64,000 nt of DNA, from assembly GCA_002269645.1 (NCBI GenBank), contig NIVC01000139.1:1-64000 (forward strand), written 5' to 3'. The notes beneath the pieces were generated by a model that saw only the letters and a program-made list of their open reading frames with translations, was not told the DNA's origin and did not search any database. The DNA is from Macrostomum lignano. Lineage: Eukaryota. Each line of letters begins with the position of its first letter. Position 1 is the stretch's first letter. Made by a program: the position numbers and the translations under genes. Below are positions 229 through 51,173 of this stretch, one piece after another.

Positions 229-288
229 CCTAACCCTAACCCTAACCTAACCCTAACCTAACCCTAACCCTAACCCTAACCCTAACGC

Positions 289-319
<31 letters not shown>

Positions 320-1216: not shown

Positions 1217-1252
<36 letters not shown>

Positions 1253-26500: not shown

Positions 26501-29500
26501 ATATTGACCACTGATTCCATAGCATGTTGTGTATGTAGCACTTATCCTTAGCTAAACCATACTTTCTGCTGAAAGCTGTTTATCTGAGAGTTTTAATATG
26601 CAACTTGTTTTCTTTGATTCAGGCCTTTGCTTGGTTTTCCGATCTACTAGTTGAACACGCCGAAATATTCTGGTCCATGTTCGCAGTGGACATGCAAACC
26701 GTACTGGAGAGCCAGCCCCCTGATGTGTGGGACTCCTTCCCACTCTTCCAGCTGCTCAATGACTACCTCCGTTGTGACGGTTCGTGCATATTATGCTGCG
26801 CTTCTAATTTTTAAATTTTAACTATGCATTCTAGTTCTATGCATTCATGTGTGCTCTGCATGTTAACAGTAGGAATCGCAGACATTAGTATTCCAATGGA
26901 GGGCGATCCTATCAATTTTCTGACCTTCCTGTTCGATACATGAATAAACAACGTCTTTCTGTCGTTTTCTGCAAGTACTGTGTGCATTATACTCGGCAAT
27001 TTTAGGTTACAAGAACCTATTACCGCCCAGATATTGACCTCCGAGCGAATTGACCTGACTGTTGATCAATTTCACAAAAACTATAAGGATTATGTGAATC
27101 GGATTGCATCACGGGGTTCCCATTTAGTGTCTATCCAAACCAGAGCTTCTCTTTCGTTTACAAGGCATCAAAATATCATGCGTATAAAATCCAATGGACT
27201 TATTACAGTCTTAGTTTCATTCTAGAAAAAAAACTGCCATGCAACTTTCGTGCCTTTAAATGTTTTACTCTTGTAGCTTTCCGTTCAAGCGCTACAAGAA
27301 AAGTTCAATAGGCGTACAATTATTCCTTAAGCACTTCTGCTTAAAATTTTCCCTACCTATAGTATCGCTTGCTGTTGTGATATCAAGTTCAGTTCTGCTT
27401 CCAAGTTCAAACTGTACATCTGCCAATTTCACAGCAAACCTACGGCATGGAAAATTTCACAAGCAACTGCAAGAGACATTTGCACCTCAAGTAGTTCGAT
27501 ATGTGGACCTGATGGAGTCGTCCATCGGGCAGTCTATTCACAAGGGATTCGAGCGGGAGACTTGGACGCCCAACGGCGGTGGCTGCGCTACTAGCAGCAA
27601 CCTACTGTGGAAGCTGGAAGCGCTGCAATCATTTATCGCTGATCTGCACTGGCCAGAGCCAGTTTTTGCTGAACACCTGGACAGCCGGCTTAAATCGATG
27701 GCCGCCGACATGTTAGAGGCCGCTGGCAGGAGAACCGCCACTGCCTTCGATACCGAACTGAAACGGGGAAGTAGTTGGGTTGACTTTTTGCTGTCTGTTG
27801 AGCTATGCGTCATGTTCAACACCTGTGTGGAGCTGAAGTCCAAGGTGTTCAGCCTCTGTTCCATGTCTTCTGGCGAGACTATGGTGAGACGCAAGGGCTA
27901 CTCAGAGCTTCAAAGATTCAATATTGATATGAATTCAATACCTACTTTAAATTATTTTTATTTTTTTGGCAAAAGAAGTCCATCTTCTTTCAAATCTTCT
28001 TTCGATTTCCCTCTGGTCCCACTGCAGCACGAGTACCACGCGAGGACGGGCGAGTTCCTGGAGGGCCTGCAGTCCCGACTAGTAAACAGCATTGTTGATC
28101 ATTTCTGCGGCGTATTCGAGATGGTGCTGGCCCGACTGGCACGCTACGATGAAGGCGCGATGTTTTCAACACTTTTTTCTATCGCCAAGCCAACAGATGA
28201 GATCGGGAAGGAGTATGTGGACTTCTGTCAGGCTAACATCGAGCAGGTCCGGCGCCATGTCTACGATGAGTTGCTGGTGCTCAGTCTGTTTGAAGTAAGC
28301 TTCAACAGTTTCAAAAGCAACTGTTTTTTGTAGTGAAATTATTGTTTGCCTTTTACTAGAGCTTTGTTTTTCTACTTCTCAGGCTTTGTATGATATGAAT
28401 AAGTCTGCTAAAATATAGAAATCACATTATGGGTGATCAGGGAGTACACGTTAGAATCAATGACTTCATTCTCTCATGTGTTCTTTTATTAAATACTAGT
28501 TGACTCCTTAAATCTGCCGCCTTTAAAAAATTGCCCTTAAATCAACTAGCTATTAGGGGATCCCCCGACAACTTTTTTGCTGCACCAGAACAAAGCAACG
28601 CAGGAACATGAAATGCAAAACCACTGGCTATTTTTTTATTGCGCACCTTCTCAAACAAGAATCAAGTCACAAGCCCTCCGTACCATTAAGATATTCAACG
28701 ATTTCTCCAGAAGGTCGGATTTTACCATAAGCGCTAGTGTTTTCAATGCACCCTTATTTGCCAATCAGCATTGCGCCTCAGTGCAGCTTTTCCAAGCCTC
28801 CAAATTTCATCAGGACGTCAACCACATGTGCTCGTATCAGCTGTATATTTGTTGGTCACTGGCCTTTCACCAAAGCGGAGCTTTTGGACCTTAGGTATCC
28901 AACAAAATAGTTTGATATCTTCACGGTCCTGAGGGCTGCCGACTTGATTACTTGAATTTAGCGTTCCTGCGTTGCTTTGTTCGCTGCTCAAAAATTGTCA
29001 GAGGATTCCCCCTTGGTAATTCAAACTGCGAAAAATGGCTTCATATTTCTACTGTCAATACGTCAAAATTTTATTTTCATAAACTTTAAGTTCTGAAACT
29101 CGAATTTGGTAACCAATGCTGCAGACAGTCTCTCCTGCTTAAGCGGAATCTCCCTGCACAAAGTGAGTTTTACATGCGATCTTAAACCTGCAGATCTGGT
29201 ACAGCCGTCAATTCCGCTTGCTGCAAGACTGGCTGGTGAAGGAACGAGCCTCAGACTCCCTGCATCCTTATCAGATCACCTGCCTCAGCTTCATCATCAA
29301 GAAGCTGCATAGTGACTTTGAGTTGCAGGGCATCACCAGAGATGTATTGGAGACTACCTGCTTTGCGGCAGTAAATTCCCGCATTCAGGTTGGTAAAAGT
29401 TGTAAAAATGTGTAAAAATGCCTTAAAAATAATTTGTTTTTTGGTTGTGTGCTAAATAATTGTCGCATTCATTCACTTTTAATGATATAACTTGGAGATG

Positions 29501-32500
29501 GGCTAGGTTTCTAAATGTTATCATGGCAACGAAAAACCTACGAAGTAGAATGCATGAGGGGGCTTCTGGGACAAAATTTTTCACCTCCTCCATAATCCAC
29601 CTAAATCCATCCATATTATCCCTGACAGAATCAGAAAAAAGGGGGGTCGCACCTGCTCACAAAACATCGTCCATAATCCCATTAAATCCATCCATATTAT
29701 CCCTGACAGAATCAGAAAAAAAGGGGGGTCGCACTCGCTCACAAAACGTCCTCCATAATCCCATTAAATCCATCCATATTATCCCCGACAGAATCATAAA
29801 AAAGGGGAGGGGTCGCACTTGCTCCGAAAACTTCGAACATAATCGTATTAAATCCATCCATATTATCCCTGACAGAATCAGAGCATAACAAGTGTCCACT
29901 AACACCTGTTATGCTCACTGACACTGACATAATCCACTAACATCCACCCAGAACCAATCAGAAAATAATCTGCATTCTTCTCCCCACATTCAATCCGCAA
30001 CGTGCTACCACATCCCTAAGACTTTAAATCCCCTAACCCAGGGTCCTTACCCTTTGAAAAAAAATTAAATTTTCTCTAAAAATGTTTCCAGTTGTCTCTC
30101 CAGGTTCTTATTACAAAGCGCACGAGCCTAATTACAAGAGTAAGTACCGATGCAAACTTGAATGCAGCGAATACATGAGAAAATATTGGCCCGACGTTGA
30201 TATCAATGTCCCTAATATTAATCTAGCTCTCCAAAGACACTGGTTTCATAAGTATGGAGTAACCTACGTAAAAGATTACGACAGCTACTATAACTTTGCA
30301 GAAATCATTAGGCAATTGCGTTAAAAAACCGAAAGGCCAAAAAGCCGAAAGGCCAAAAGGCCAAAAGGCCAAAAGGCCAAAAGGCCAAAATCGTTTGCAT
30401 TCTGGCCTTGCGCGAGGCCGAAATCCTTTGCATTCTGGCCTTCTTTCGAGACGGAATTCTTCCTCGGCTGGGCTCAGTTAAAGTGAAAATCTCTCTCCCC
30501 TCACGCGCGCTCTCTCTACTCCCATATCTTTCAAGAGCCTTCCCAATTCATTGTTAGGAGCGCAAAAAATAAACCCTGCTCCCGAGCACTCCGCACACCC
30601 ACCCTCTCTCCCCAAACACCCACCCTCGCCGTCGATCCCCAACCCCAACTTAGACTTACCAAAAATAAGCGCCTTGACTAATTTCCTAGCAATAGACTCG
30701 CGAAATCCGCTTGAAGCCCCTATATTGTCTAGTCTCCTAAGCATTTCTTTGTCGCAACGATTCTTCTCCTCAGGAAAATCTCTATATTTAACGTCATGCC
30801 ACATGCAGACAGAGTCTAGCTCGTTCACAGGCTCATGCCCAGGATTTGGATTATTGTTTTTATCTAACTGTATTTCAAGTGGATTCAAAGGCCCGCAATA
30901 TTTATAGCCGGGAAGTGTCCAGCCTTTGTTTGGATGAGGAAGCTTTTCTATCAGTCCATGTGAATCTAACTTACCACCAGAGCGTTGCATTATTTTATTT
31001 TAAATTTTCTTTTTTAAAAAATGACAGATCAGAAACTTAAAAAACTCTACTACAGCAACAAAGGATTCTTTGTAGGAAAAAATGCAGTCACCAAACTCGC
31101 AGAACTAAGTAAGGAACCAAAAGATAAAGTAGAAAAGTGGCTCTCTAAGCAAGCAGTCTACCAAGTCTATTTCCCACCAGAAAAAATTTGAAAGGCCCCA
31201 TTTCAGTATTTATAAACCTAATGAGGCGCACCAAGCAGATCTTCTGTTTCTCCCCAATGACTCAGGCTACAAGTATGCTCTTACAATTATTGACATTGCT
31301 TCCAGATATAAGGAAGCTCGCCCACTCAAGACGAAGAAGTCAGAGGTTGTTGCCAGTGCACTGCAAGATATTTATAAAAACTCTCCGCTCACATACCCCC
31401 AAATCTTTATGACCGACTCGGGTAAGGAATTCATGGGTGCAGTGAAATCCCTTATGGAAAAGCACAATACAGAGATTCGCTACGGAAGAACAGACCTGCA
31501 CAGGGATCAAGCGTACGTTGAGAGATTCAATCTAACTCTAGCCAAGAGACTATTCACTAAGCAGACAGCGCAAGAACTCAAACTGAGTGCGGGGCAGTAC
31601 TATACCAAGTGGACAGAAAGACTCCCCACTGTTATAGAGCAACTGAACAATGAAGTCACGCGCATGACTGGATTGAAACCGTCCCATGCAATTAAACAAG
31701 ACACTGTCGAACTTAAGTCATCTCATAGAACAGACAACAACACGACAACCCCACACAACACGCACAACACAAAACACACCTCGAACTACCCTAAGCTTCC
31801 AGGAGTTGAATCACCATACATACTGACAAACTCTGAGTTTCTACGCTTTTTATATCTACCTGGAGAGCTAGAGAAAGACACCAAAAGAAGAGCTACAGAT
31901 CCATACTTCAGCCTTGATGTACATAAAATAGACAGACATTTTACCTCCGACTCTGGAGAGTATTACTTTTTATCTCAGGCTTTTAACCCTAAATCCCCCA
32001 CGCGGTCATTAACTAGAGCTGAACTCCTAGTGATACCAGCTGACACAGAAATTAATTAAAATATTAAAATAAAAAAATGACAAAGATTGAAACCAGAACC
32101 ATCAATAAACTCAATAAAATCATTGAATCAAAGAAACCAGGTCTTATATCAATTAAAGGTGTCAAAGTAAAAATCGATCCCACGCAGCAAATAGTTCAGT
32201 GTAATGAACAAAGACACAGCATCACAGATGAAAAGTCAGGAGGAATCCTACCATTAGCAGCTCTTATTCCGATCATTGCAGGCGCTGTAAGTGCCGCAGG
32301 TGGTGTAGCTGGAGGTGTAGCAACTGCTGTTAAAGCTGGGAATGATAGAGCCCACCAGCTGGAATTGCAAAAGATTGCAAGAGACAAAGGTATAACAATT
32401 AAGGCAGGAGAGGGCTGCCCTGATTTTGATGATCGTGATGATTGTGAGCATGAAAATTCTGTAAGCAAGTCTGACATTGTCAAAGCAATCATGACACTGC

Positions 32501-35500
32501 ACAATGCTGGGTTTACAATAATGCGGATGTGATGAGGTTTAAAACCCCACTTTATCCAGCTTCATAAACCTAATACTACTTATAGGATGTAGAAACAGTT
32601 CAACTTTTCTATCAGGGTGGTAACCCTCAAAGTTTTTTTTTATTTTAGAGATAAAAATGCCAAAAGCCAATCCAGAAAAAGATTTGGTCAACAAATATTT
32701 TTCAAAAGGCGTCTCATTTCAAGACAAAAGTAATTTACTAAGAGAAGCATGTAAACAAACGTTTAACACAGACCCTGGTCACCTGGGAAGCTATGAAAAA
32801 CAGTTGGAAATCATCAAACAATTAGAATCCAACCAGTATGCGCCTATACAAAATCCTGCAAAGGAACACCAAGAGAGGAGTCGCAACTTAGTTAACAAAT
32901 ACGAAACTCTCACTGGTGAAAAAGCAAAGTACCCACAAAATAAGCAGGAACAAGAGAAATTAGAGCAATTAATCCATTTAAAAGAGTCGGAGCTTGCCAT
33001 TGAAGAGATTAATTTTGCACAGAGGAAGTTTACAGAACATTACATAGAGTACAAAATCCCAATTAACGGCACCAACCAAATTAACGACACCAACGACACC
33101 ACCGCAAACATCTACGACTATAAAGACAGCATCCAATCAGTTGTTGATCACACACTCAAAACACGCAAGACCTTTAAACTACAGATATCATTCAAGATTG
33201 CGTTTTATATGCCTGCAAAACCCACTGAGCATCTCGAGTATTACATGACAACAAAGGCAAAGCCATTCACCCCTACAGACACACTGGATCCTTTCCTTCA
33301 AGATGTCACTAAGAAAATTGAAGCGTTTACATCCAGAGGTTCCGGATGGGTCGTGGGAGGGATTCAAAGAGCGACTGTCATGGTCATGAAATATGACCCA
33401 CTTAAAGCCTCCTCTTATATAGAGCTCCCGCATAAGCTTGCCGGCAAAAAAGCTTGCATAAATGTTAAAAATAAAGACAATTGCTGTGCTCTATGGGCAG
33501 TTCTTTCTGCACTTCTTCATGATAGTGTCCCTCACCACCCTGAAAGAACCTCAAATTATCAAAATTATTTCAACTACTATCTCATTGAATGCGAAAAGAA
33601 GGGAATCAGGTTTGACAAAGGAGGCTTGGCGATCTCTCAGATCCCAAAGCTGGAAGAAGTGTTTAATAACAAAATTAGAATCACAGTCTTTGAGTGGAGT
33701 GAAAAAACTGAGAAAGTTCAACCGGTCAGATGTAGCAAAGACGTTTTAGATCCTGAGGGGAAAAGGCGGACTGAAGTGGATCTTCTAGTGATTGGTAATT
33801 TACTAGAGGAGGCTCACTATGTTTGGATTAAAGATCTTTCAAGACTCATTCACAAGCAGTTGAATAATCATCACGAGGCTGTTGCCATCTGCCGCTTGTG
33901 CCTTAAGCATTACAGTGGACCTGAGCGCTTTGAAAAACTAGCAGAGCATGAATTATCATGCGAGGATCACCCGACAAACTGCTCTCTTCCTTCAGCTGAA
34001 GAGAAGTATCTCCGGTTTAAGAACTATCACAAGATGGAGAAGCTCCCATTTGTTGTATATGCTGATTTCGAATGCTCAATCATGCCAGAAACACAAAAAC
34101 AAACTCCAACTCAAAAACATGTCCCCAATTCAGTAGCATATGCCTTTATTAATACAAAAGGACTTGTTGAGTATAATTATTTCTTTGGAGAGCAGTGTGT
34201 GGAGCAGTTTATTGCCAGAATGTTAGAGTTGCAAAAAGTGATTAGCACCCTTCAACCTGTTCCAATAATGATGACTGAGGAGGATGAAAGCAATTTCCTA
34301 TCAGCAACTCATTGCCACATCTGCAGGAAACATTTAACTTGCACTAATATTAAAAACCCCACCGTTAGGGACCACTGCCACTTTACTGGGAAATTTAGAG
34401 GCGCCGCGCATAACACCTGTAATCTAAAGCTAAAATCGAACATTCATGATCTAACGATATTTTGTCACAACGCAAAGAACTATGACATGCATTTAATAGT
34501 TGAAAAAATCGGCATGATTCCAGACATACACCTTGATTGCATCGCAGAGAACAAGGAGAAGTTTAAGTGTGTTGATATTAAACAGGATAATTCGGGTAAA
34601 GGTGAAGGTTCGAGTGAAGGTAAAATAAGACTGAAGGATTCATATCAATTTCTAGCTGCCAGTCTAGACGAACTAAGCAAGAATCTAAAAGATGAACAAT
34701 GTACATATACAAAGATGTTTGCAAGTAAAATTAACAACACTGATGAATCATTTAAACTTTTAAGAAAGAAAGGCTTCTACCCCTATGAGAATATTACTGG
34801 GTATCATGTATTTGAAGAAGGTTTACCACCACAGGAGAAGTTCTTTTCAAAGCTAACAGACTCTGGAATCTCTGACAAAGACTATGAGCACGCGAAGCAT
34901 GTCTATAATTACTTTAATTGTCAAAACTTCTTCCAGTATCACCTGCTTTACCTCTTCACAGATGTGTTTCTGCTGGCCGATGTGTTTGAAACTTCAGATA
35001 CACCTGGTACACAGCATATGGCCTCGATCCAGCACATTATGTGTCTCTGCCTGCCACTAGCTGGGAATCTTTGCTTAAAATGAAATGGGATCAAGATCCA
35101 GATTGGTACATTGAACTTCTTACAGACATTGACATGTACAATTTTGTCGAATCGTCAAAGCGAGGGGGGATCTCAATTTGTGTTAACAGGTATGCAAAAG
35201 CAAACAATCCCTACATTGAATCTTACAATAAGGAGCAGCCCTCAAACTACATTACTTACTTGGACGCTAATAATCTCTATGGGTGGGCGATGAGTCAAGA
35301 TCTTCCAGTTAGAGATTTTCGATGGCTACCCTCATCAGAATTCAAATGGGACTTTTCATTGGCTGCCATTTATGAGGTTGATGTTTACATTCCACCAGAG
35401 CTTCACGACTATTTCTCTGACTTTCCACCCTTCCCAGAGAACATCAAGTGCCCGAAAATAATCGAAACTCCCAATGATAATAATGGAACTTGGCACCTGT

Positions 35501-38500
35501 CAGGAACAGAAAAAGAACATACAGAGAAACTAACACAGAATCTAAACAAAAAGACACGTTACAAAATCCATTACAAACTGCTTCAGTATTTTATCTCACT
35601 GGGTTGCAGGGTCACCAAAGTTCACAGGGCTCTTACATTTACAGAGGAAGCGTGGATGAAACCCTACATTGATAAGAATACCCAGTTTAGGACCAAAGCA
35701 ACCAACGACTTTGACAAGAACCTCTTTAAGTTGGCCAACAACTCTGTCTATGGCAAGACTCTTGAGAATGAGAGGAAAAGAACAAACCTGAAACTTGTTA
35801 CCTCATCAGAGCCTGCTGTTATTCAGGCAAATATGTCAAAGCCAACATTCAAAGAACTCCATATCTTTAATAGCTACTTAGGTGTGATCATATTTTACAA
35901 AACCAAGGTGACGCTGCGCAAGCCGATCTATACAGGTGTCACTGTGCTCGACGAATCAAAACGTCTGATGTACCAGTTCTTCTATGGCATGAAGCAGCAG
36001 TACAAGGATAAAATGAAACTCTTGTACACTGACACAGACAGTTTTATTATGGATATTCAAACAGAAGACATTTATCAGGACATGCTGCAGCAAAAAGATT
36101 TGTTTGACTTGTCTGAGTATGATGAATCTTTCAGGACACAGAATGGCGATCAAGTGTTTGACGCCACTAACAAGAAAGTGATTGGGAAAATGAAGGACGA
36201 GATTGCTGGTGACATAATCACTGAATTCATTGGGTTGAGAGCAAAGTCCTATTTTGTAAAATGTGAGTCGTCAGACCCAATTAAAAAATCAAAGGGAATT
36301 CCGAAACGTGTGGTTAGGAACGAAATTAATGAAGCTGAATACAGAGACGCCTTGAATTGCAACAAAAAGACATCACATGAGTTCTCAAAGCTACAATCCA
36401 AAAACCATATTATTCACACAATTCAGCAAAAGAAGATTGGACTGTCAGGTGCAGATAACAAGAGATTCATTTTTGATGACAATATCAACAGTCTGCCGTT
36501 CGGGCATTGGAGATTAGGTTTAGGAGGTTGGGTTTAGGAGGTGGAGGTTAGGTTTAGGTTTAAGAGAAAGTTTAATAAACCTCATAAAAAATGACATAAA
36601 AATGACAACAAATAACTTTCTTGAAGATTTGGCTAACGAACTGGAAATCCCAAACTTTAGAGGAATATTTATGAGGGACACTCTGCCTGATTTTCCTCTA
36701 AGAAAGGAATGCGGCATCATGAACTTTGACACCACCGATAAGCCAGGATCTCATTGGGTTTGCTGGGTGATTGATCTCGATCGCAAGCACAAGTGTTATT
36801 ACTTCGATAGCTATGGGACGGCAGTACCAGAAGAGCTAAGAAATTATATGAAGGGAAAAAAGAATAAAAAAATTTATCGCTCAGACTTTATTCTCCAAGG
36901 TCTTAGCAGTGATATTTGCGGTGAGCTGTGCATGACTGTTTTGTATGCAATGACCAAAACACGAAAGACCTACAAGGAAATTATTCTTGGCTGTGTTTCA
37001 TAGGGGTTCATTGTGCATTTCTCGTTGTCCTTCTTGCCGAATTTCTTGCCGACTTTCTTTCCACATAATGTTGAAAAACTTTCTCGAGTTCATTTTTCAG
37101 CTGACTCATGTCATCAGTACCGACCATGTTCAAGTTCATTCGAATTGATTGTTCATAAAGATCCTGAATGGTTTTGAACTCATCCTCTGAAATGAACTTA
37201 TCCTCGATTGCCCTTGAAATGTACCCTATAATTGATGTGTGCACCCCTTTCTCTTTTACTTGCTTCTCCTGTAGCTGTTTTAGTTTTTTTCGCCTGTTTC
37301 GCGCTAATGCTCCAGTAATTGCTGAAATAAGTCCACATGCAGCACCCAGAGAGCCGAGCGGGATTGCGATTGGGGCTGTGATGACTGGCAACACTGAGAC
37401 AGCTGCAGCAGACCCAGATAGAACAGACACAGTTCCTAGAATCATATTGTTGTAGTCGAAAAATTTACAGTGGTTGTCATAGCGCTTAATTTTCTTTGTG
37501 TTGTGGAAAATATTTTTTTCAAGATCATCGCGCATTTTTTGAATCTCCACCAGTCGAAACTGTTGAGAGTTACAAGTAATGACGGGGTAGAGTTTTTGTT
37601 GCTCATATTGGGGTGCACTAGGTGCACTAGGTGTTGTGGGAGCATTCTGATCATAAAGAGAATTTTGAGCATCCATTTTTTAGGGAATTTTTTTAAAAAA
37701 ATCGGCAACTAGTTGGTGGTGGTTAGATTTGTTTTACGGTTGATTGCTTCGTCTGCAGTCACGGCAACGGGTCTCTTCGAATCTGCCTATTCATTGTCTG
37801 TGAGCTCCATTCTACGTCTGATCTCAAACAAGTCGGTTGGATCACTTATTTCCCTTGTGGTCTGTGGTGGTGCCTCTTCAGCGTCAATGTTTTTGAGATT
37901 ATGCAAGCGTTCAAGACGACCGATTCTTCTCACCGATTTCTGCCATTCGGTAAAAACTAAATCTACATAGACTTTAATTGCAGTAATTCTTACTTTGATT
38001 TGATCATGCAACGCTGTTGACTGAGTCATGAACTCTTCTAAATTCCTCACTTTACATGTGTTGGTTGCGACGTTTTCTTTAATTCTATCATGCAATGCTG
38101 TTGACTGGTTCATGAACTCTTCTAAATTATTCACTTTAGCTGTGTTTGTGAAAACTCCTCCTTCAAGAATACGCATCCGTCTATCAGTGGAATTTCCCAG
38201 AAGATTAACTGTCGATCTCAAACCGTTGATTTGCGAGACTATCGAAGTTATTTCTGACCTAAGTTCATTAGTTGCGTTTAACAACGGCACATAAAGCTTA
38301 TCACTTTCAAACTTCTGCCTAGCTACTTTAAGCACTAGAATCGGCGGGCACGGCCTAGTTTTGACAGAACTTCGTCAATTGTGGGCGTTGTTGACACCAT
38401 GTCTTTCAGCAGTGGGTTGAGGGTAACCTTGTAGTCACCACAAATCCGAACCTTTCCTGACTGCTTTCGAACACAGACAATGGGTGTAGCCCACTCGCTG

Positions 38501-41500
38501 GATTCCACCTTCTGGAGCTGTCCAGCCTCTTCCATTCTCTTCAACTCGGCCTTGACATCGTCCTGAATCCCGTATGGAATTTGCCGAGGTTTAAAAAAGA
38601 TGGGCTTTGCTCCCGCCTCAATGGCCAATGATACAGAAAATCTTTTTACAGAGCATGCCGTTGTAGGATTCGAGCCGTCTTCCTCAGGCACCGTACATTT
38701 TGTAATAAAATTGTAGAGGTCTGGCTCAAGGGCAGCAATCCAATCTAGGCCATAGATAGATTCGGCTTTTGGGTTGTCCACCACAAACAGAGTTAGGTCG
38801 GAACTTACTGAGTTTAGCTTGGCGTTCACAATAGCTTCGCCTTTCACTAGCACTGGATCCCCTTGATACGCAGCGAATCGTCTGCTTGTGGGCCTTACAT
38901 TTGCTGGTTCGAGTAGGCTTTGAAACACCGAGCTTGACACGAACGTTGAGCACGACCCGGTGTCCAGTAGCATCTTGATTTTCGTACCATTGACTACTAC
39001 ATGTCGCGTTATCCTTCTGCTTCCACGACCATCTTCCGGCGTCATCATCGAGAAAATGTGCCCGACTTGATCAGCTGCATCGTCGATTGCTCTGACTCTG
39101 CTCCTTGGATGCCGTCCGCCTCCTTGTGACCATTTGTTGCTCGTTGAAGGCCGTTGTCCACCTTTGTTCGGTCCGCACCTGCAAACTGCTTTGAGATGAC
39201 CAACCTTACCACACTGAAGGCATGTCTTAGTCCGGTGGTGGCACTGGTCCTTTGTATGTCCTTCCTTGCCGCAGCAGAAGCACTTGACTTGGCGCAATTG
39301 GCCGTTCTTCTGGTCGCTTTTCTGGTACGCTGGCTTCTGGGCTTTCGATGTCGAAGGAGGATCTGACTTGACATGTAGAATTTCGCCTCCTGAGATTTGT
39401 CTCTCGCCGCGACTTACGGCCTCGCATGCATTGGCCACCGTAGTTACTTTTTCCCACGTCAGATCTTTCAGTTTCTCCGTGAGCAACTTTCTGACGATCT
39501 CCTTGTTCGACAATCCGAAGATAAATTGGTCCCGCAGGCGGTCATTCAGTTCGGCGGTTGAAAAGCCGCAGTTCTCCGAACCCAGTCGCAGCCTTCTTGC
39601 GTAGGCAGAAACGTCTTCGCCATCGTCCTGCTTGAGGTGATGGAACGCGTACCGGTATGCAATCTCGGATTTCGCCGCTTTCGTCTCCTTGATCAGCTGA
39701 GTTTTCAGATCAGCGTAGGTCTTGGCGTCAGGCTTATCTGGCAATAGCGCATCCGCCAACAGTGCGAAGGCCTTCTTGCCGAGGTGTGCGATGAGGGCGA
39801 ACTTCTGAGCGGTGTCATCCCACTTGTTCAGCTTGGAAACTGCTTCGAAGCGTTGGAACCAGCGCTCAATTTCCGCTGGGGCTTCTGTCTCCAGAGGCTC
39901 GATAAGACCAGCCGTCGTCGCCAGTGTTCGTTTTTTGGGACGAGTAAGAAAATTGATTGAGTCTCAGCCTTTAGCTTAACTCTGCAGACGCTTGGTCTTT
40001 TCAATTATATTTTGGCAACTCTTTAAGCCACCGAATTGAACTGTACAAATGTCCATAGACATCAATAGAATTCTCAGCCGTTGACGGCTACTAAGCAAAG
40101 TACATTCTCTAATAAATAAAAGTTCATCACAGTGCTAACAGATCTCTTCATCAGTGTTAATGTAGCGCTTGTCAAGGAAGGAAGTTGTGAGAGTGCTGTT
40201 GCCTGTAGTTGACTCACCTGCAAAATTAATAGACATTTTTTTTAAATAAAAAATTAAAGTAAAATTTTTTTCTCCTTATTAATCATGACAAACTGATAGG
40301 GTTGGTTCCACTTTTCATAGCATATGTTAACAAATTCCTCCTGTGATATTGTTCTGTTAGAGTTCTTAGCTGGATATGTAATGTGAGCTGGGGCAATTAC
40401 CTCATTATAAAATCGTTTCAGTCGATCCTGTGGTATGGTTGGGAAAAGGAGAATCAAATTACAGTTACCTCTAATTGTTTTATTTGGCAGTTCAAACCAG
40501 TTTTGGGCAATGTAAATAACATTGCAGTTATTGTGTCTACCCCGGGTGAAATAATTTTCTATCTGTTTCTGGGGACCGGTCATGCAGTCATCAAAGACAA
40601 TCAGGTGCTTTCTCCCCTTTTCTAGTTCATCAGGTTGAGGTAAGAGTTTAGTTTTAGGATCTATCTGTGGATCTCCATAAGTGAAAACTTTAATATTTTG
40701 CCATTTTTCATTGTCTGGGATGTGCTTTGCGTATTCAGTGGCTACAACTTCCGGGTTGCTGTTGAGATCTTTTTGATGTCTAAAACATTGGATAATATCT
40801 TCCTTGTTGAGTTTGTTCTGTAGGCCCGCTACTAGCATTTTATACTCATCTTGATACAGAGTGGGTGAATAGATATGTAGTGTGTCATAATCGAGGAATC
40901 CAGGTCTGAGGAGCATATTAAAAACTCTGAAGGTTTTCCCTGACCCAGATGAGCCAACAACAATGCATCGGAAGTGCCCTGGAATTATCTCGTTGTGAGC
41001 AAATTTTATCTGATTGCGTGTCCAGTGGGGATGAAAGTCGTTTGTGAAGTCCATTTTTATGTAAAAAAACTTTTTCTTTTTAAAATTGTGTATTTAAGAC
41101 GCGTGTGTCTTTTTTCGGGATGTGTATGTGTGTGTCTCTTTGCGGGATGTGTGTGTCTTTTTTTCGGGTTGTGTGTGTCTTTTTTTTCTACTAGTCCTAC
41201 ATCCGACTAGTCCTACACCCTCACACCTCTTTTACCGTCAGGGTGCACCAAATTAGTCAAATTAAAAACCGCCTCCTTTCTTATATTCAGCTCTCATCTT
41301 TGCGTAGATGGCTGGATCGACACTATCTGCACTCGGTGCAAGGGGTTGAATATCTGGTATTGATTTCCGGGTTTCATTAACCGTATCCTTTATCTTTTTG
41401 GCTGCTGTGGCTACACTGCCAGCCGCTTCGGCAACGTTCTTGATGTTCTCTTTGTTCTCTCCAATGACCTTAAAAATCTTGGCCCCCTGAGCGATCAAAT

Positions 41501-44500
41501 CGGCAAGACCGTTCCCAGAGCGTTCTTTTCTTGGATAGTGGCCTGCAGGGAAAAGTCCAGATCCGCGTTTAATGAGATTAAGTTCCTCTTTGTCGTAGTA
41601 TTTGTCAATGTCTTTTTCGAAAATAATCGGCATCTTTTTAAATAGAAATTTATTTTTTGTTGAACCGCGAAAGCAGAAGCTCTCTCGCCCTCTAATCGAT
41701 GTATTTTCTCTCAAGCATTTTATTGAGGATGTTGACAAATTCTTTTCTATTTTCATCTTTCATTCCGGTCTTTGCTGCTCCTAAAAGAACCGCTACTCGC
41801 TTGTAGATTTCAGAAATTCCTTTTCCAGTTGAGGACGGTTGGTCTTGGGGTTGTGGAGTTGGTTGGGCTTGTAGCTGCTGGGGAGGTGATGCAAAAGACT
41901 GCTCACTTTCAGAGATGGAACTGTCATGTGGTGCCTGTCTTTGTTGAGGTGTGAAAACTCTTTGTTTGATTCTATTCATTCGATCTGGAGAGTGTTGTTC
42001 TAAGTGTTGCCAGTCTGTTGGGTTTTGTTTTTTATATTCAGCTACTTTCAAAGGGTCTAACTGCTCGAGTTGACTGAGTACTTGTTCTTCTGTGGAATGT
42101 TGCTGCTGTGGTTGTGGTTGTTGCTGTTGCTGTTGTTGTTGTTGTTGTTCTAGATATTTTATCCGATCAATGACTTCCGCCTGATCTGGCAAATCGAACC
42201 ATTGTTTAAAGTGTTTGTACTTTTTGAATCTAGTCAGGTTGACACCGTTATCATACATAAGTCTCAGGACTTCTGGGGCCTTTAGTATTTCTATATCTCT
42301 AGCAAGAGCAAAAGTCACTAGATCTCTATAGTTCTTTAGCTGTTTGTCCGAGATTCTCTCTTGGTTCTTGGTCATAAAAGTCAGTAAGGTGTCTGTGAAA
42401 GGAATTTTCATAGTTTCTGAGCCTTTGACAACAGAAATATTTTCCTTATTTATGTCGATATAATATTCCACTGGTTCATTATAAATGTTTCTTCTCCACA
42501 CACTTATTCCAAATACATATTTCCCATCATGTTCTACACGCTCTACTGGTCCAAAAATGTTATCTGTCACTTTTAGTTGCTGTTGTGGTTGTGATTGTTG
42601 TGGTTGTGATTGTTGTGGTTGTGGTTGTTGTGGTTGCGGTTGTGTCTGTGGTTGCGGCTGTATCTGTGGTGCTTCTGGAATTTTGCCCAAAGCCTTTTGC
42701 ACCTGAGTTTCCTGTATGTCGTCGATAGTTTCTTTGACCTGATCAATACTTTTCTTAGCTTCTCCATACCCGGGCTTATGAAACTCTGTGGCTGCTTGGA
42801 CAAACTCATTGTAGGATTGTTGCTCCTTATTTATTAGCCCGGTAACTCGTTTCTCTGCTTGTGCTAGCTTCTCCAATTCAGATATCTGCTGTGTACTTTT
42901 TCGCTTCATTTCTTATTTTATTTTATTTTTAGTTAAAAAATGAACGACCCACTGACACCAGTTTTCTACAAGATTAACAAGCCTATTTTGAGTGATGATA
43001 GCACAATCAAAGCGACTCAGGTAAGAGTTCCCAGTCAGGAAAATCAGAATGAAACTAATCTTGGTCCTGGCCAAACACTGACATTTACATACAATGGATG
43101 TTCGTCTTTGGTTAGTGTGCACAGTCTTAAGAGCGGCTTCCATATGACATTTCAATTCAAGACAAAAGGTGGTGCGGATGCGGCTCGTGCTAACGTTGAC
43201 AAGCATGATGCGGATGTGACTCTGATCAGTAACTTTTGGGCGTACATGTTCAAGGAGTTTAGTGTATCGAATGGGAGCACTGAGTTGGAGCGAATCGCCA
43301 ACTTTGGAATTGTCTATGACGCTCATTGTTTGATCGAGAATCCTGATTTTATTCAATTGGGAAGTGGTGCGGGTTTTATTGCAGACGAAAAAGGAGATAT
43401 CAATGACAGTGGTTATAAAAAATAGGAAGAAGAGATACAACTATGCATTGCAAGGTGCTGATGATGCTGCTAAGAACCCGCAGTATCGGTCTGTTGATGT
43501 ATTTGTACCATTGAGATTCATGAGTGGATTCTGTAATACATTTAATCGACTGACTAGTAACTTTAGCTACACATTTAGGATGACTAGAGATGATCGCAGT
43601 AGAGTGTTGTGGACTGGGGCGGACCACACTGGGATGGCTGTGAAGCTAACCGGAATCGAGCTGTATTTGGAAGTCATTGAGCCAAAGACCGCACTAAAAG
43701 CGGATTATCTCAAGGCAATAGAGAAGGACATTGATGTTGCATACACAGCCTACATGTGTCGAGATGAGCGAAACGAAACTAGAACAAACATCTGCATTAA
43801 AGAGGGATCATGCAGCAATCCAAGTTATATCATTATTAATATGAGAAACCCAAATAGCATTATACGCTACATGCATGGAGACGTGCGGTCCATTCAGCAT
43901 GAAATCAGTGATAATCTTTACCCTGCACTGCCACAAAATGGAGATTTCAGTCAGAACAAGATTAGCAAATTTTACAGCGAGTTGGTCGACTTGGCTGTGA
44001 AAGAGAACAATGGAATTGCTATCACTGCTCTTCAATATGGAACTCTATATCCAATGTTTGGCGCTGATGTGTCTGCCAGACAAATGCCTACTGATAACAG
44101 CCCTGTGAATATCGTGACTAACATTGAGAGGACTGTCGCAACACCCGTGGACCTGTACATTATCTATGCATTAGAGAGGAAGGTGAAGCTTAACATGATC
44201 AACAATTCATCCAGTAAAGTTTAAATATTTTTTGTGGGTGAAAAAAATGGAAGCTATAGCCGAAAGACTAAACAACATTGTTTCACACTCCAAGGAGAGC
44301 ATTCCTATTACAATAACTGGGCGAATTAATGACTCAAACGGGATGTTTGTTGAAAAATTAGAGCAGGCGATTCGCCTGGATCCTGGCGCTAATTACCATG
44401 TCTATCTTAACGACTTCACTGGTTGGTCAAACGTTCCCAATGTGATGGCAGCAAATAATAAGTTTTATTACAAATGGAAAGGTGCAGCAGCAGACCCTGT

Positions 44501-46418
44501 GGTATTCCATGTGAGCACGCAAAGTGTGGATACCTACAATAACTTTCTAGAAAATGTCTTTACTAAGAGAGGCCATTTCGAGACACCTGATGCGAGTAAG
44601 CCAGAAAAGAAACTGTTCCCTGTCAAACTAACCTATGATCTCACTGTAATGAGAGTGGTCATGCAAGTTCACAAAGATGCGGAGGTTGAGTTTAAAGATA
44701 ACACTTGGTATAGGGAACTGGGATTCGAGAAGAAAGTTTATAAGGCAGAATCCGCGGCGCGGACCGCCACTCAAGCATCGGGGACTGTTAGAATGGTCCG
44801 GGAAAGTGTAAGCGGTTTGTTCTTAGCACCCAATATAGCAGACATTGTAAAGGGTTTGATATTCTAATCAGAAGCAATCTCAGTCTTGATTGGGTATTTA
44901 AGGGAAAGCGAACTAATATTTTGTACAACATCTCCAACTCTGTTGCTGGAGGACAGATGGTGGTAGAGAAACCAAATCCAGTGAAAAGAGTTGTATTGAG
45001 TAATAAGGAGATTCACGAGATTGTGCTACAGTTTGAGACTGAAGATGTTGGGTTGATTTCAAGTGTTGGGTTGATGAAGAAGTGTTGATTTCAACGGTGA
45101 AGAGTTTGTATTGACGTTAATCATTGAGAGAATGTAAGAAATCACAATTGCCTAATGATTTCTGCAAAGTTATAATAGCTGTCGTAATCTTTTACATAGG
45201 TTACTCCATACTTATGAAACCAATGTCTTTGGAGAGCTAGATTAATATTAGGGACATTGATATCAACGTCGGGCCAATATTTTCTCATGTATTCGCTGCA
45301 TTCAAGTTTGCATCGGTACTTGGGTTTGTACAATGGATTAGGCTGAGTATAATAAGAACCTGGAGAGACAACTGGAAACATTTTTATTGAGAATTTAATT
45401 TTTTTTTCAAAGGGTGAGGACCCTGCGCTGATGATTTAAAGTCTTAGGGATGTGGTAGCACGTTGCGGATTGAATGTGGGGAGAAGAATGCAGATTATTT
45501 TCTGATTGTTTCGAAGATGCTATGGGTGGATGTTGGTGGATTATGTCTGTGTCAGTGAGCATAACAGGTGTCCACAGTGAGCATAACAGGTATCAGTTGA
45601 CACCTGCTCTGATTCTGTCAGGGATAATATGGATGGATTTAATGGGATTATGTTCGAAGTTTTCGGAGCAAGTGCGGCCTCTCCCCTTTTTCATGATTCT
45701 GTCAGGGATAATATGGATGGATTTAATGGGATTATGGAGGACGTTTTGTGAGCGAGTGCGACCCCCCTTTTTTTCTTATTCTGTCAGGGATAATATGGAT
45801 GGATTTAGGTGGATTATGGAGGAGGTGAAAAATTTTGTCCCAGAAGCCCCCTCATGCATTCTACTCTACGAAGTTGTAAAAGTCATAATCAAGCGAATAA
45901 TTTATTTACTTATTCGCCTGATTTACTATATGGGCTACCCTTATCTTTTGCAGGAGTACACTGAGTAATTCAGAATGCCTCTTGCTTACAGCTAGCACTT
46001 TTTAAATTTTAAAATGTTTAAAATATTTTTCAGCAGCAGTTTTTTTAAAGATTTCTCTGGCACGAAGAATCAGTAGCATGATATTATAAAATTTAAACCA
46101 CAATGAGGATCAATGTTGAGATAATAGAAAAATTTTTCATAAGTAAATCTGAACTGACGTGGAGTCCAAATAAAGATTCGAGAAGCACTGCAGAAGCTGA
46201 GCCAGACCATGTTTCTGTACTCCTTTCAGGCGGAGGAGGCAACGCTGTCCATGAGGCTGGGCGAGGCCTCAACCAGGCCGGGCAGCCGGTCCCCGCCGGG
46301 TAGCATGGCGGGGTCGATCTCTTCCATCGGGAGCAGCAAGTCGCCTGGGGCCGGTGGGATTTCCAGCATCGCCAGTAGCTTGTCTGGCTTTTTGCCTAAG
46401 TCTGGCGGCACTAGCTGA
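11547..46418 (+). CDS. CADPS: Calcium-dependent secretion activator (CAPS/CADPS), 15 exons: 11547-12011, 13168-13587, 15211-15291, 15466-15747, 18365-18598, 19430-19633, 19724-20403, 20568-20733, 22303-22426, 24721-24827, 26623-26779, 27435-27883, 28028-28294, 29194-29388, 46230-46418
   Basis: Hallmark CAPS peptides: [51 protein letters not shown]2 [19 protein letters not shown] domain [60 protein letters not shown]. Splice phases are consistent across all joins. Confidence 0.95.
14135..14950 (-). pseudogene. Degraded tyrosine recombinase (DIRS/Ngaro-like) remnant in CAPS intron 2
   Basis: Frame-broken YR-like motifs in the expected order: LRFAHLALV (LRxxEL), C*TPGQ (KT), CAPVRAVK (CPVxAL), [14 protein letters not shown] (HSxRxGGAT). 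Confidence 0.45.
22975..24465 (-). mobile_element. 5'-truncated, decayed Penelope-like retroelement (RT, linker, start of GIY-YIG region, 3' end)
   Basis: [35 protein letters not shown] (YVDD changed to YVDG), [20 protein letters not shown]; then [18 protein letters not shown], which is truncated. A hammerhead-like motif and AATAAA lie at 22975-23021. Confidence 0.85.
25328..26456 (+). mobile_element. Internally deleted mariner element with long (about 175-195 bp) TIRs and TA TSD
   Basis: TA|cgaggggtgtccaaaaagtagtgggaattttcaacc ... ggttgaaaattcccactactttttgggcacccctca|TA. Transposase C-terminus [40 protein letters not shown] at 25590-25920. Confidence 0.9.
29544..30318 (+). repeat. Left TIR (775 bp) with four ~81-84-bp internal repeat units and an 80-aa ORF
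   Basis: Reverse complement of 45145-45865. Unit core cataatccc-attaaatccatccatattatccctgacagaatc starts at 29591, 29672, 29754 and 29838. Confidence 0.93.
30082..30324 (+). CDS. TIR-encoded hypothetical protein, left copy (80 aa)
   Basis: AAAAATG start, open in both TIRs; isolated differences between the copies are synonymous. Confidence 0.7.
   Translation: MFPVVSPGSYYKAHEPNYKSKYRCKLECSEYMRKYWPDVDINVPNINLALQRHWFHKYGVTYVKDYDSYYNFAEIIRQLR
30478..30990 (-). CDS. Parvovirus VP1u-like phospholipase A2 (Polinton PLA2)
   Basis: [12 protein letters not shown] Ca-loop-like motif and [16 protein letters not shown] catalytic HD helix. Confidence 0.85.
   Translation of the reverse strand: MQRSGGKLDSHGLIEKLPHPNKGWTLPGYKYCGPLNPLEIQLDKNNNPNPGHEPVNELDSVCMWHDVKYRDFPEEKNRCDKEMLRRLDNIGASSGFRESIARKLVKALIFGKSKLGLGIDGEGGCLGREGGCAECSGAGFIFCAPNNELGRLLKDMGVERARVRGERFSL
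31021..32059 (+). pseudogene. Polinton retroviral-type DDE integrase, +1 frameshift at the A6 run 31181-31186
   Basis: [12 protein letters not shown]-terminus; after removing one A the frame reads [15 protein letters not shown] (D), MTDSGKEF (D), [11 protein letters not shown] (E). Confidence 0.9.
32077..32532 (+). CDS. Adenovirus pX (mu precursor)-like core/membrane protein (151 aa)
   Basis: [30 protein letters not shown] resembles the adenovirus pX C-terminus GGILPLLIPLIAAAIGAVPGIASV. Confidence 0.65.
   Translation: MTKIETRTINKLNKIIESKKPGLISIKGVKVKIDPTQQIVQCNEQRHSITDEKSGGILPLAALIPIIAGAVSAAGGVAGGVATAVKAGNDRAHQLELQKIARDKGITIKAGEGCPDFDDRDDCEHENSVSKSDIVKAIMTLHNAGFTIMRM
32657..36537 (+). pseudogene. 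Protein-primed family B DNA polymerase (pPolB) with EndoVII-like insert; 1-nt deletion at 34989-34991
   Basis: ExoI YADFEC, ExoII HNAKNYD, Exo[13 protein letters not shown]; Pol [29 protein letters not shown]; [19 protein letters not shown] insert. Adding one A restores [21 protein letters not shown]. Confidence 0.95.
36602..37003 (+). CDS. Adenain-type cysteine maturation protease (133 aa)
   Basis: GSHWVC (His), YFDSYG (Asp), [12 protein letters not shown] (Gln/Cys). Confidence 0.92.
   Translation: MTTNNFLEDLANELEIPNFRGIFMRDTLPDFPLRKECGIMNFDTTDKPGSHWVCWVIDLDRKHKCYYFDSYGTAVPEELRNYMKGKKNKKIYRSDFILQGLSSDICGELCMTVLYAMTKTRKTYKEIILGCVS
37008..37676 (-). CDS. Polinton membrane-active protein with hydrophobic hairpin (222 aa) and PSAP/LYP motifs
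   Basis: PSAPSAP..KLYPVI, FRLVEI, long G/A/V-rich hydrophobic hairpin, [15 protein letters not shown] tail. Confidence 0.7.
   Translation of the reverse strand: MDAQNSLYDQNAPTTPSAPSAPQYEQQKLYPVITCNSQQFRLVEIQKMRDDLEKNIFHNTKKIKRYDNHCKFFDYNNMILGTVSVLSGSAAAVSVLPVITAPIAIPLGSLGAACGLISAITGALARNRRKKLKQLQEKQVKEKGVHTSIIGYISRAIEDKFISEDEFKTIQDLYEQSIRMNLNMVGTDDMSQLKNELEKVFQHYVERKSARNSARRTTRNAQ
38335..39924 (-). pseudogene. Gag-protease-RT N-terminus, truncated
   Basis: Two CCHC knuckles ([28 protein letters not shown]), LLDTGS protease, [17 protein letters not shown]; breaks just before the RT motif-A aspartate. Confidence 0.9.
38339..40140 (-). mobile_element. 3'-truncated Mag-like Ty3/Gypsy element nested in the Polinton (5' LTR 40140-39925, PBS, gag-pro-partial RT)
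   Basis: LTR TGTTAG...GAACA, followed by PBS TGGCGACGA; no 3' LTR present. Confidence 0.85.
40254..41054 (-). CDS. A32/FtsK-like genome-packaging ATPase (266 aa)
   Basis: Walker A GSSGSGKT, Walker [23 protein letters not shown]. Confidence 0.95.
   Translation of the reverse strand: MDFTNDFHPHWTRNQIKFAHNEIIPGHFRCIVVGSSGSGKTFRVFNMLLRPGFLDYDTLHIYSPTLYQDEYKMLVAGLQNKLNKEDIIQCFRHQKDLNSNPEVVATEYAKHIPDNEKWQNIKVFTYGDPQIDPKTKLLPQPDELEKGRKHLIVFDDCMTGPQKQIENYFTRGRHNNCNVIYIAQNWFELPNKTIRGNCNLILLFPTIPQDRLKRFYNEVIAPAHITYPAKNSNRTISQEEFVNICYEKWNQPYQFVMINKEKKILL
41262..41633 (-). CDS. Small virion core protein with GxG sites and an amphipathic helix (123 aa from ATG 41633)
   Basis: [29 protein letters not shown]-terminal KKGGGF. 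Confidence 0.6.
   Translation of the reverse strand: MPIIFEKDIDKYYDKEELNLIKRGSGLFPAGHYPRKERSGNGLADLIAQGAKIFKVIGENKENIKNVAEAAGSVATAAKKIKDTVNETRKSIPDIQPLAPSADSVDPAIYAKMRAEYKKGGGF
41692..42909 (-). CDS. Gln/Pro-rich Polinton hypothetical protein (405 aa)
   Basis: Long ORF with AAGAAATG start, polyQ/QP tracts and a C-terminal helical motif [28 protein letters not shown]. Confidence 0.7.
   Translation of the reverse strand: MKRKSTQQISELEKLAQAEKRVTGLINKEQQSYNEFVQAATEFHKPGYGEAKKSIDQVKETIDDIQETQVQKALGKIPEAPQIQPQPQTQPQPQQPQPQQSQPQQSQPQQQLKVTDNIFGPVERVEHDGKYVFGISVWRRNIYNEPVEYYIDINKENISVVKGSETMKIPFTDTLLTFMTKNQERISDKQLKNYRDLVTFALARDIEILKAPEVLRLMYDNGVNLTRFKKYKHFKQWFDLPDQAEVIDRIKYLEQQQQQQQQQQPQPQQQHSTEEQVLSQLEQLDPLKVAEYKKQNPTDWQHLEQHSPDRMNRIKQRVFTPQQRQAPHDSSISESEQSFASPPQQLQAQPTPQPQDQPSSTGKGISEIYKRVAVLLGAAKTGMKDENRKEFVNILNKMLERKYID
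42940..44224 (+). pseudogene. Double jelly-roll major capsid protein (hexon-like), +1 frameshift at the A6 run 43417-43422
   Basis: SDDSTIK..., [33 protein letters not shown]; removing one A restores GYKNRKKRY. Combined length about 427 aa; position next to the penton gene. Confidence 0.8.
44247..45137 (+). pseudogene. Single jelly-roll minor capsid protein (penton); frameshift at 44849-44857 and 37-nt duplication at 45047-45083
   Basis: [26 protein letters not shown]; -1 frame continues [19 protein letters not shown]; typical C-terminus [14 protein letters not shown]. Confidence 0.8.
45142..45381 (-). CDS. TIR-encoded hypothetical protein, right copy (79 aa)
   Basis: Paralog of 30082-30324. 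Confidence 0.7.
   Translation of the reverse strand: MFPVVSPGSYYTQPNPLYKPKYRCKLECSEYMRKYWPDVDINVPNINLALQRHWFHKYGVTYVKDYDSYYNFAEIIRQL
45145..45865 (-). repeat. Right TIR (721 bp) with three internal repeat units and a 79-aa ORF
   Basis: Inverted copy of the left TIR; one repeat unit fewer and patchy divergence. Confidence 0.93.
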
Positions 46419-47293
46419 GGCGCTTTTCGATTTCGATGCTCTACGTCTAGTAGCACTGAGTAGTAGGCTAAGTTGGAAGTTGTGATGAATCGTTTATGAG
46501 CTCATTTAGCTGCGAGCAATTTTCTTAGACTGATGCAAAATTTATACAGTTGATGATTAATACGGAAAGTTATACGGCAATCTTTGCCACGAGTAATTCT
46601 ATATTTGTTAGCTGCCGTCTTTTGTTTCATTGTTTTCTTTCTAATAAAATTTGTATGTCAAATTAATTGTCAGTAACATTACGATCGTATCAATCCAAAA
46701 AGCTTAATAACTTAAAGATAAAAGATTAAGGACAAAATAGCTCTTAGAGCAGCTTGAACTTTGCTCACCATCAAATCAAACTATTACTGTTGAAAAATAT
46801 ATACGCTGCTGATGTGCCTGGAGCTTGCATACTCGCAAAATTCAGAGTAAGTCACCCTAAATTTGGCGTGCAGTGTTCGAGTTAACGATTACATTGGAGA
46901 AGTACCAGCAAATCACACAGTGACTAACGAGTACTACGGCTGTTGTTTGGAATACGGAGACATTTTTGTATATTAACATTATTACATTGAAGCTTTGTTT
47001 CGCCTGTTTCTTCAATCAAATAATTTTGTCTCGTTCTTGAATGAATTAGGCTGGGACGAAATGTTTTGCAAAATGCATGAATCGTTTTGCGTGAACGCAG
47101 CTGTCTATGGCCTGATCTAAACATAGCTTTTTAACAATTTTATTGGACAAAGGTGGATTTTATTTAGTCTATGGCTAGCTATGCTAAAGAAAAGTGAGTT
47201 TGATTTAGTCAGCACTCGCATTTGACTATATACTATTGCCAGGAAGGAAAAGTTGATTTACGCTCGTAGTCAAATGCCCTTCCCATGTCCTGA

Positions 47294-48465: not shown

Positions 48466-49085
48466 CAAATTCTAAAAACCCGAGCAAGCCCCATACGACT
48501 GACTAAATTAAATTCATTGTCTATGGGCAAATTCAAAGTGCTGACTATATGAAATTCGATTGCTTATTTTTCAGGGGCAAAATAAATTTCTCACGAAGAT
48601 ACAGTCACGAAGCAGCCAGTCAATCAGTGGTGGCAAAACGTAAAAGCCGAATTCAAAGTCGCTTTTTCTTCGAACTAGAATCAATAATACAATATGAAAG
48701 GCTTAGAAGACTCCAATTTTAACGCTTTCTTTGCTGCTTTCGGAGTTGAGTCGACAACTACGCTCGTAGAGTTTCTGCTGAGTCTTCGGACCAAGCTGCT
48801 CTAAAAAAAGAATCGACGAAAGTTTGCCTGCCGCTACCGTTGAAGATGCAGGGCGGCTGGAAATAACGTTCCGGGACTAAGAGGATGTACATGTAAGAAC
48901 TCTAATCCGTAAACTGTTTGAACTGGATCATGCAAATTGAGTATGCTAAGTTTTGTTGTTATGTCAGTTTTGCTTGTTGCTAAATATACTGTGAGCTTGT
49001 TCACTTCAATGTTCCATATAATGCTCCTGATTTCGAGGAGATTATACGAACAACAACGTCGCCGAAATTACTGCTGTTTACGCTT

Positions 49086-49814
49086 GTGTTCTACCTTGGC
49101 AAGCAGTTCGCTTTGCGTGGAGGCACGGAGCTGCATGGTCTGAGATATAGCTGTGAGATCCAGTTGCAGCATGAAGACGGTCAAGAACTTCTAGTTTACT
49201 GTGAGAACAGAGCCACGAAGACCAACAACGCTGGCATAAAGCGACGTTTTGTTCCATTGAAAACCGTTAAAGCATCTCATACTGCTGATCATGATAGATG
49301 TCTACCCTGCATCTACAAGCTGTATGTGGACAAAAGACCGGAAAACTGTACGGTTCAGAATTTGTTCCTGGCTTGGATGCGTAGCGATGCCAGCATCCAG
49401 CAAGGCAGTTGGTACCAAAACGCACCCGTCGGCCGGCACAGCTTGGACGGTATTGTTCGTGAATTAACGGCTCCCCTAACTGGAGTGACTGAAAGGTACA
49501 CTAATCAGTCTCTACGCAAGACTTGCGCAAGTACTCTACACCGTGCTGGCTTTGCTAGAGAGGACATCGCTCGTGTTACAGGACACTCTTCGACAGCTAT
49601 TGAGCGCTATATTCAGTTTGACGTACAAGACCATGTTAAAGTATCGCATGCTCTTCAATCTGGTGGTCAGTCATCAAGTCTGTCTATTGACACCGAGCCT
49701 GAACGCTCTGTTGAAGCTATGGAACAAAGTAACGTAGTGACTGCTAATCCTGCAAAGAAAATGAGGCTTAACATCAATGGTAACACCAACACCGTTGAAA
49801 TCGTTTTCGAGTGA
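49086..49814 (+). mobile_element. Crypton-type (DUF3504-like) tyrosine recombinase catalytic domain
   Basis: FALRGGTE (R), TKTNNAG (K), WYQNAPVG, YTNQSLRKT (HxxR with H changed to Q), VTGHSS (H), IERY (Y). The N-terminal part upstream (~48800-49085) is degraded. Confidence 0.85.
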
Positions 49815-51012: not shown

Positions 51013-51173
51013 TAGACTCGGCTTCGCCTCGGCCTAGAAACGCAGTCCTCAGCCGTTCCTAGGCCAAAGAAACGAAATCAAGTGGGGATTATCTTATACA
51101 GACACGTAGCTCGTACATTCAAAGCGGCCTTTTAGAATTCTGCCTATATTTGCAAGTGTAACGTCCTGTGTTG

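Follow-up and report, generated by a model that had tools for sequence, protein, structure and literature searches.

The stretch of DNA analysed here, 64,000 nt in length and hereafter called the window, opens with approximately 9.7 kb of CCCTAA telomere repeats. These are followed on the plus strand by a host CAPS gene, modelled with 15 exons and approximately 1,360 amino acids (11547..46418; Pfam matches to C2_CAPS, PH and MUN). The model was built by coordinates with splice sites picked to fit, and exon 10 could begin at any of three acceptors; it contains no internal stop codon, and its introns comprise 12 of the GT-AG and two of the GC-AG type, the latter at 15292-15465 and 20404-20567. 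Almost no subtelomere exists within positions 1-11547, as only about 1.8 kb separate the telomere array from the start codon of CAPS. Two introns contain short elements of their own. Intron 9 (22938-24509) has an RT fragment (23725-24477, minus strand) between 69-bp inverted repeats that are 94% alike, and in intron 13 there is a short element with inverted ends (28588-28982), which shows very high depth in four of four public runs and is likely a MITE.

The last intron, intron 14 (29389-46229, GT..AG), measures 16,841 nt and separates exon 14 (29194..29388, +, 195 nt) from exon 15, the last coding exon (46230..46418, +). The element that is the subject of this study makes up, together with one copy of its target-site duplication (TSD), 16,328 nt or 97% of the intron, and 513 nt remain without them. 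A preliminary description of this DNA had placed the element in an intact host gene near the telomere, as nearly all of a 16.8-kb last intron, and each part of this placement held: 16,328 of the 16,841 nt are accounted for, the modelled CAPS frame is open with the three domain matches given above, and the CCCTAA repeats stop at about 9,720, 20 kb from the element. Downstream of CAPS, a DUF3504/tyrosine-recombinase ORF (48984-49814, +) and a similar-looking piece (50633-51058, -) are presumably the remains of a Crypton-type transposon. Further along, a young full-length gypsy element (54026-58287, +) has 168-bp LTRs that are 98.8% identical; its gag and its 976-aa pol share a frame and have one stop codon between them, at 55116, which is either read through or a mutation. 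Exons of an RPGRIP1-like C2-domain gene (58326-64000, -) come last.

In the window sequence the element spans 29544-45865 (16,322 bp), starts with AGTAG and ends with CTACT, and is flanked by the duplication CTACGA at 29538..29543 on the left and 45866..45871 on the right, so that the precise ends and the TSD given in the preliminary description were recovered at the same letters. The left terminal inverted repeat (TIR) is approximately 775 bp long, begins with AGTAG (29544..30318) and contains an approximately 82-bp tandem unit in 3-4 copies; the right one is approximately 721 bp long and ends with CTACT (45145..45865). Global alignment of the pair gave 663 matches, 33 mismatches and 16 gap events. 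Each TIR harbors an 80-aa ORF belonging to no family (30082..30324, +) or its twin (45142..45381, -), and 73 of the 80 residues are identical between the two. Leaving aside one replaced block and the last codon, this ORF pair has three differences, all of them synonymous, which is a weak sign that the ORF may be a real small gene. These synonymous differences suggest that the TIRs of this copy were already unlike before it landed. Dating the insertion from the TIR divergence (approximately 5%) was rejected, since the TIR ORF differences outside the replaced block are synonymous.

Between the TIRs, putative functions could be given to most of the genes. The first is a parvovirus-type phospholipase A2 (PLA2) of 170 aa with an open frame (30478..30990, -; PF08398, E 2e-13), in which Pfam found no pX match, sequence comparison found no PDB match and Rfam found no group I intron (RF00028) at E<=1. 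GGNCC sites number 20 against 23.2 expected, which is no loss of these sites. The PLA2 gene is followed by a retrovirus-like (rve) integrase (31021..32059, +; PF00665, E 8e-10, above the cut-off) split by one frameshift into frames 31021-31191 and 31133-32059, by a 151-aa protein with an adenovirus pX-like motif (32077..32532, +; PF05829, E 4.7e-7) and by a protein-primed DNA polymerase B (32657..36537, +), also with one frameshift (frames 32657-35083 and 34990-36537). The adenain-like cysteine protease (36602..37003, +; 133 aa, frame open) matches PF00770 (E 8e-4) and PF02902 (E 1e-3), both below the cut-off, and its His, Asp and Cys motifs are visible in the sequence. A 222-aa protein of an unnamed family with a long hydrophobic stretch (37008..37676, -) reaches an Atlas score of 0.94 to unnamed clusters only, weak by the Atlas's own measure. 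The 3' part of a coiled-coil-like gene (37787..38333, -) is cut by a gypsy element, and 40141-40236 is likely its 5' part, the joining of both parts being inferred. Next come an A32/FtsK-type packaging ATPase (40254..41054, -; 266 aa, frame open; PF04665, E 7.5e-7), a basic protein with an amphipathic stretch in a 164-aa ORF (41262..41756, -; no family, true start probably internal) and a Q/P-rich protein of 405 aa (41692..42909, -), likewise of no family and with no usable Atlas match.

The morphogenetic genes close the series. The major capsid protein with its double jelly roll (42940..44224, +; one frameshift, frames 42940-43425 and 43334-44224) shares 83% identity with residues 1-162, and 73% with residues 161-428, of its relative P0001, which itself passes PF21738. 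Thirteen relatives were found among 7,995 candidates and none is informatively named; the AlphaFold model of P0001 is poor (pLDDT 34.8). The penton, or minor capsid protein (44247..45137, +), has two frameshifts and runs through three frames, the frame changes being placed by comparison with P0137 and P0142. It has 38 relatives, and the model of the closest (P0134, 69%; pLDDT 87) resembles mavirus and adenovirus pentons in a fold search, with a best E of 1.8e-10 to the mavirus penton. Both capsid calls are thus made via close relatives, by PF21738 on P0001 and by the fold of P0134. Weak Pfam matches that fell short of the cut-off, colicin, Zot, TRPM2 and FKBP15 among them, were set aside. The gene list first proposed (major capsid, penton, ATPase, adenain, PLA2 and pX) is therefore supported by Pfam, relatives or fold, with the protease below the Pfam cut-off, and the amphipathic and hydrophobic proteins named with it correspond to the stretches in the 164-aa and 222-aa ORFs, neither of which belongs to a named family.

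In the polymerase the recognizable regions are a vOTU-like one, an endonuclease VII insert (Pfam match below the cut-off), exonuclease and palm. The C-terminal piece matches 4,238 of the 7,984 scored candidates, the best 120 being 41-47% identical, and among these best 120 listed there is one named virus, the Corynactis coral adintovirus, whose PolB shows 41% identity in the C-terminal and 31% in the N-terminal part. In the N-terminal piece the Cys and His predicted for the OTU, and also the endonuclease VII insert, are in register with the Corynactis PolB. Many of the 120 best-listed relatives carry PF03175; the polymerase pieces of the window itself gave no Pfam match to it.

Judged from its sequence, the element is a Polinton/Maverick of the Alpha adintovirus type. 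The polymerase and the rve integrase (both present, both frameshifted), the ATPase, the protease and the two capsid genes are those of the class, and the lengths of the TIRs and of the whole element as well as the 6-bp TSD conform to it: the class is defined with TIRs of 100-1500 bp, a length of 13-25 kb and TSDs of 5-8 bp, usually 6 (10.1101/2023.08.22.554363), and Mavericks of vertebrate genomes have a 6-bp TSD and AG..CT ends (PMC8097293). The Alpha assignment comes from PolB, the hexon relatives (n=13) all being without an informative name. A PolB with an N-terminal OTU marks the Alpha group, and the predicted polymerase is collinear with that of Corynactis, with the OTU Cys and His aligned; the Corynactis PolB is itself among the Alpha PolB contigs in Fig S2 of PMC8502044. 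Finding it in that panel led us to drop a tentative Beta, or group 1, assignment. PLA2 and pX are separate ORFs on opposite strands here; PLA2X, a single protein of PLA2 with C-terminal pX, is described as characteristic of Alpha adintoviruses and not as required (PMC8502044). In a polymerase tree of 49 of the 120 relatives, with no outgroup and no Beta sequence, the element sits on a long branch, and long-branch attraction may account for its grouping with P0063. Alpha adintoviruses, or group 2 Polintons, of invertebrates are now placed in the family Eupolintoviridae (PMC8502044; PMC12451622).

As to novelty, Orthopolintovirales insertions have been reported in Rhabditophora (10.1101/2025.04.19.649669). 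No description of this family was found in the literature on Polintons and Mavericks of Macrostomum, flatworms and planarians or on intronic polymorphic insertions (subscription papers and Repbase lay outside the search), and scans of viral and metagenome contigs yielded no relatives with flanking DNA for a comparison of gene order. With a polymerase at most 47% identical among the matches listed and with unnamed capsid relatives, the lineage looks undescribed. The suggestion that both the lineage and its gene combination might be new thus stands for the lineage, whereas the gene set is the usual one of Alpha adintoviruses as far as PMC8502044 describes it, except for the PLA2/pX split.

The element had also been called complete, and this is not the case. 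Five frameshifts interrupt four core genes (one each in integrase, polymerase and major capsid, two in penton); the capsid and polymerase alignments contain no in-frame stops. In addition, a truncated Ty3/gypsy fragment of approximately 1.8 kb (approximately 38334..40140, -) is nested inside: its 5' LTR (TG..CA, 40140-39925) is followed by the primer-binding site, gag, protease and the start of RT, after which it is cut off, and no second LTR for it is present in the window. It likely interrupts a Polinton gene, and an adjoining piece is likely lost. Frameshifts and gypsy fragment had both escaped the preliminary description. A Maverick is called 'intact' when all core ORFs are uninterrupted (PMC8097293), which does not apply here. 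In four of four public runs, sister contigs show an indel relative to the window at four of the five breaks (12 of 62 differences listed), and their match to the window stops at 38333, at the start of the gypsy fragment; the damage is therefore peculiar to this copy or to its assembly.

The second of these options deserves attention. Repeats polish badly in assembly, and if the frameshifts were errors in a high-copy repeat the element would be near-intact except for the gypsy fragment. The indels in sister contigs at four of the five breaks fit such errors, as do the lack of premature stops and the fact that two of the four breaks tested fall in 6-base runs of one letter. Real private change is nevertheless indicated at no fewer than 17 sites of the element, among the 40 substitutions listed, at which almost the entire contig depth carries a different base, and the insertion and deletion of the gypsy fragment cannot be a polishing error. 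Moreover, the element has five breaks over 11,524 coding nt, whereas the other coding DNA compared in the window (host CAPS and two gypsy frames; 9,503 nt) has none; the chance of no breaks at the element's rate is 0.016, which is weak evidence, the compared frames having been chosen for being open. Taken together, we consider assembly error decidedly unlikely as the source of the frameshifts and favour real, modest decay. As predicted from its reading frames, this copy is now unable to make its own integrase, polymerase or capsid.

The stretch is present in 20 of the 24 listed public runs, all of one organism and none recorded as RNA, and contigs only were used. Sister copies, whose search the preliminary description had recommended, turned out to be numerous, with depth far above that of the host flank in four of four runs. 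The element reached 39,000-256,000 against a flank of about 280 in run X1 (gypsy bins about 2,500), 460-11,000 against 17-18 in X2 (gypsy bins 135), 3,000-47,000 against 30-33 in X7 (gypsy bins 320-460) and 120-3,300 against 14-16 in X11 (gypsy bins 87); such sums of contig depth are not copy numbers and are read here only as many copies. The same element end was found with other flanks in at least 9+4 contigs in X1, at least 9+4 in X2 and at least 2+1 in X18. The element thus belongs to a many-copy family.

Such a family could also have supplied the enzymes by which an element that was already defective, gypsy fragment included, was recently copied into CAPS. The whole ends, the perfect TSD and an empty allele in other samples are what a non-autonomous jump of this kind would leave, and the gypsy bins stand several times above the host depth. 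The latter, however, is explained by the gypsy family itself, as gypsy contigs continue beyond 38337 into sequence absent from the window. Furthermore, the contigs did not show this gypsy junction in any other copy, and the haplotypes are about 3% apart here, so the insertion need not be recent. We regard such a jump as unlikely and prefer decay after the insertion.

An empty-site allele, for which PCR had been proposed, was found directly in the contigs. In X1 a contig of 1,189 nt (depth 170.6, minus strand) matches 29080-29546 with letters 721-1189 and 45866-46606 with letters 1-729, placements taken as one record on account of their equal length, depth and strand and their complementary ranges. 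It joins both flanks and holds CTACGA once, the 9-letter overlap being the TSD plus three bases common to both sides. In X7 a 1,190-nt contig stops at 29546, and in X2 a 948-nt contig begins at 45866 without TIR. An empty allele of this site therefore exists.

For the filled allele, the window assembly is the sole source. Among the contigs listed for six runs, none connects this flank to an end of the element; as rare paths are lost from contigs, the missing bridge does not mean that the filled allele is absent. The filled site could, in principle, be a mis-assembly in which a repeat was joined into the intron, and it is true that the runs examined gave empty-site contigs only. The exact 6-bp duplication at both ends, single in the empty allele, is nonetheless the trace of an integration and unlike a mis-join. 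At 46577-46813, moreover, some 30% of the depth in X1 and X2 belongs to a haplotype that is identical to the window there, its upstream part lying outside the listing, and we hold a mis-assembled site to be very improbable. The filled allele may be on this minor haplotype and have been dropped by the contigs. More broadly, the depth over 45866-46813 in these two runs splits approximately 70:30 between two haplotypes about 3% apart, which suggests three copies of the region or mixed samples.

Splicing of the last CAPS exons could be followed in run X18, which covers exon 15 and the 3' UTR and not the intron. In one of its contigs (depth 9.3) exon 15 follows the end of exon 14, and in another (depth 4) it follows the end of exon 13 (28294 to 46230), so that the 195 nt of exon 14 are skipped in frame. 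These exon junctions confirm the CAPS gene model. The preliminary description had held that CAPS must splice across the insertion; the exon 14-15 junction is indeed seen, but only from an empty-type haplotype, X18 having the differences in exon 15 and UTR that are found in the empty-site contig of X1.

The reading that we prefer, with a probability of roughly 0.8, is that a Polinton/Maverick of the Alpha adintovirus type lies in the last CAPS intron within a 6-bp TSD and is a broken, likely dead member of a many-copy family. By analogy with the class, a linear dsDNA form would be copied from its ends by the protein-primed polymerase, the rve integrase would make the staggered cut that yields the 6-bp duplication, and capsid, penton, ATPase and protease would package the genome, with PLA2 and pX acting in entry and core. 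Terminal-protein-primed replication, rve integration and a capsid module possibly forming particles are general background on the class (see PMC8502044, PMC11071308 and PMC8097293). We infer that this copy landed in a 513-nt intron, lengthening it 33 times and leaving both splice sites untouched, and that decay would have followed through frameshifts and through a gypsy insertion with subsequent deletion. As the ends of the element are whole, sister copies could in principle still mobilise it.

A bolder picture is tentative and, to our mind, rather doubtful. It would have an undescribed, deep-branching Alpha lineage with tens or hundreds of copies that is still active, its intact sisters making virions with separate PLA2 and pX and with a small gene in both TIRs, while the host splices CAPS across the 33-fold enlarged intron, possibly skipping exon 14 more in transcripts of the filled allele.

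As a single locus the insertion is ordinary, for endogenous Polintons are mostly broken (96% in PMC8097293), and insertion sites specific to a strain are known. Its value is as a marker for a high-copy family whose capsid lineage is unnamed, in a group of hosts on which little has been written about Polintons. The pair of alleles, filled and empty, also offers a natural experiment on what a large viral insertion does to host gene splicing. Virions of animal Mavericks were unobserved as of 2021 (abstract of PMC8097293); a high-copy family is a place to look for them, a question that this copy cannot answer.

Three known systems can be compared with the element. Nematode Polintons (10.1101/2023.08.22.554363) share with it the core genes and insertion sites that vary between strains of one species; they differ in a fusogen gene, which was not found in this element. 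Degraded vertebrate Mavericks (PMC8097293) are similar in size range (12.7-24.6 kb), TIRs, 6-bp TSD and AG..CT ends, and in decaying by frameshifts and large insertions, as do 96% of the surveyed loci. Here, in contrast, the host is an invertebrate, the gene order is another and PLA2 is present, and the end motif is AGTAGA instead of the (AGT)2 or (AG)3 of the vertebrate elements. With Alpha adintoviruses such as that of Corynactis coral (PMC8502044), the element has in common an OTU-type PolB with an endonuclease VII insert, the rve integrase, adenain, FtsK/A32 ATPase, hexon and penton, PLA2 and pX motifs, inverted terminal repeats and integration in an animal genome. Unlike the fused PLA2X of those viruses, PLA2 and pX are two genes in the element, which further differs from them in a capsid without named relative, a long-branch polymerase and the defective state of the copy.
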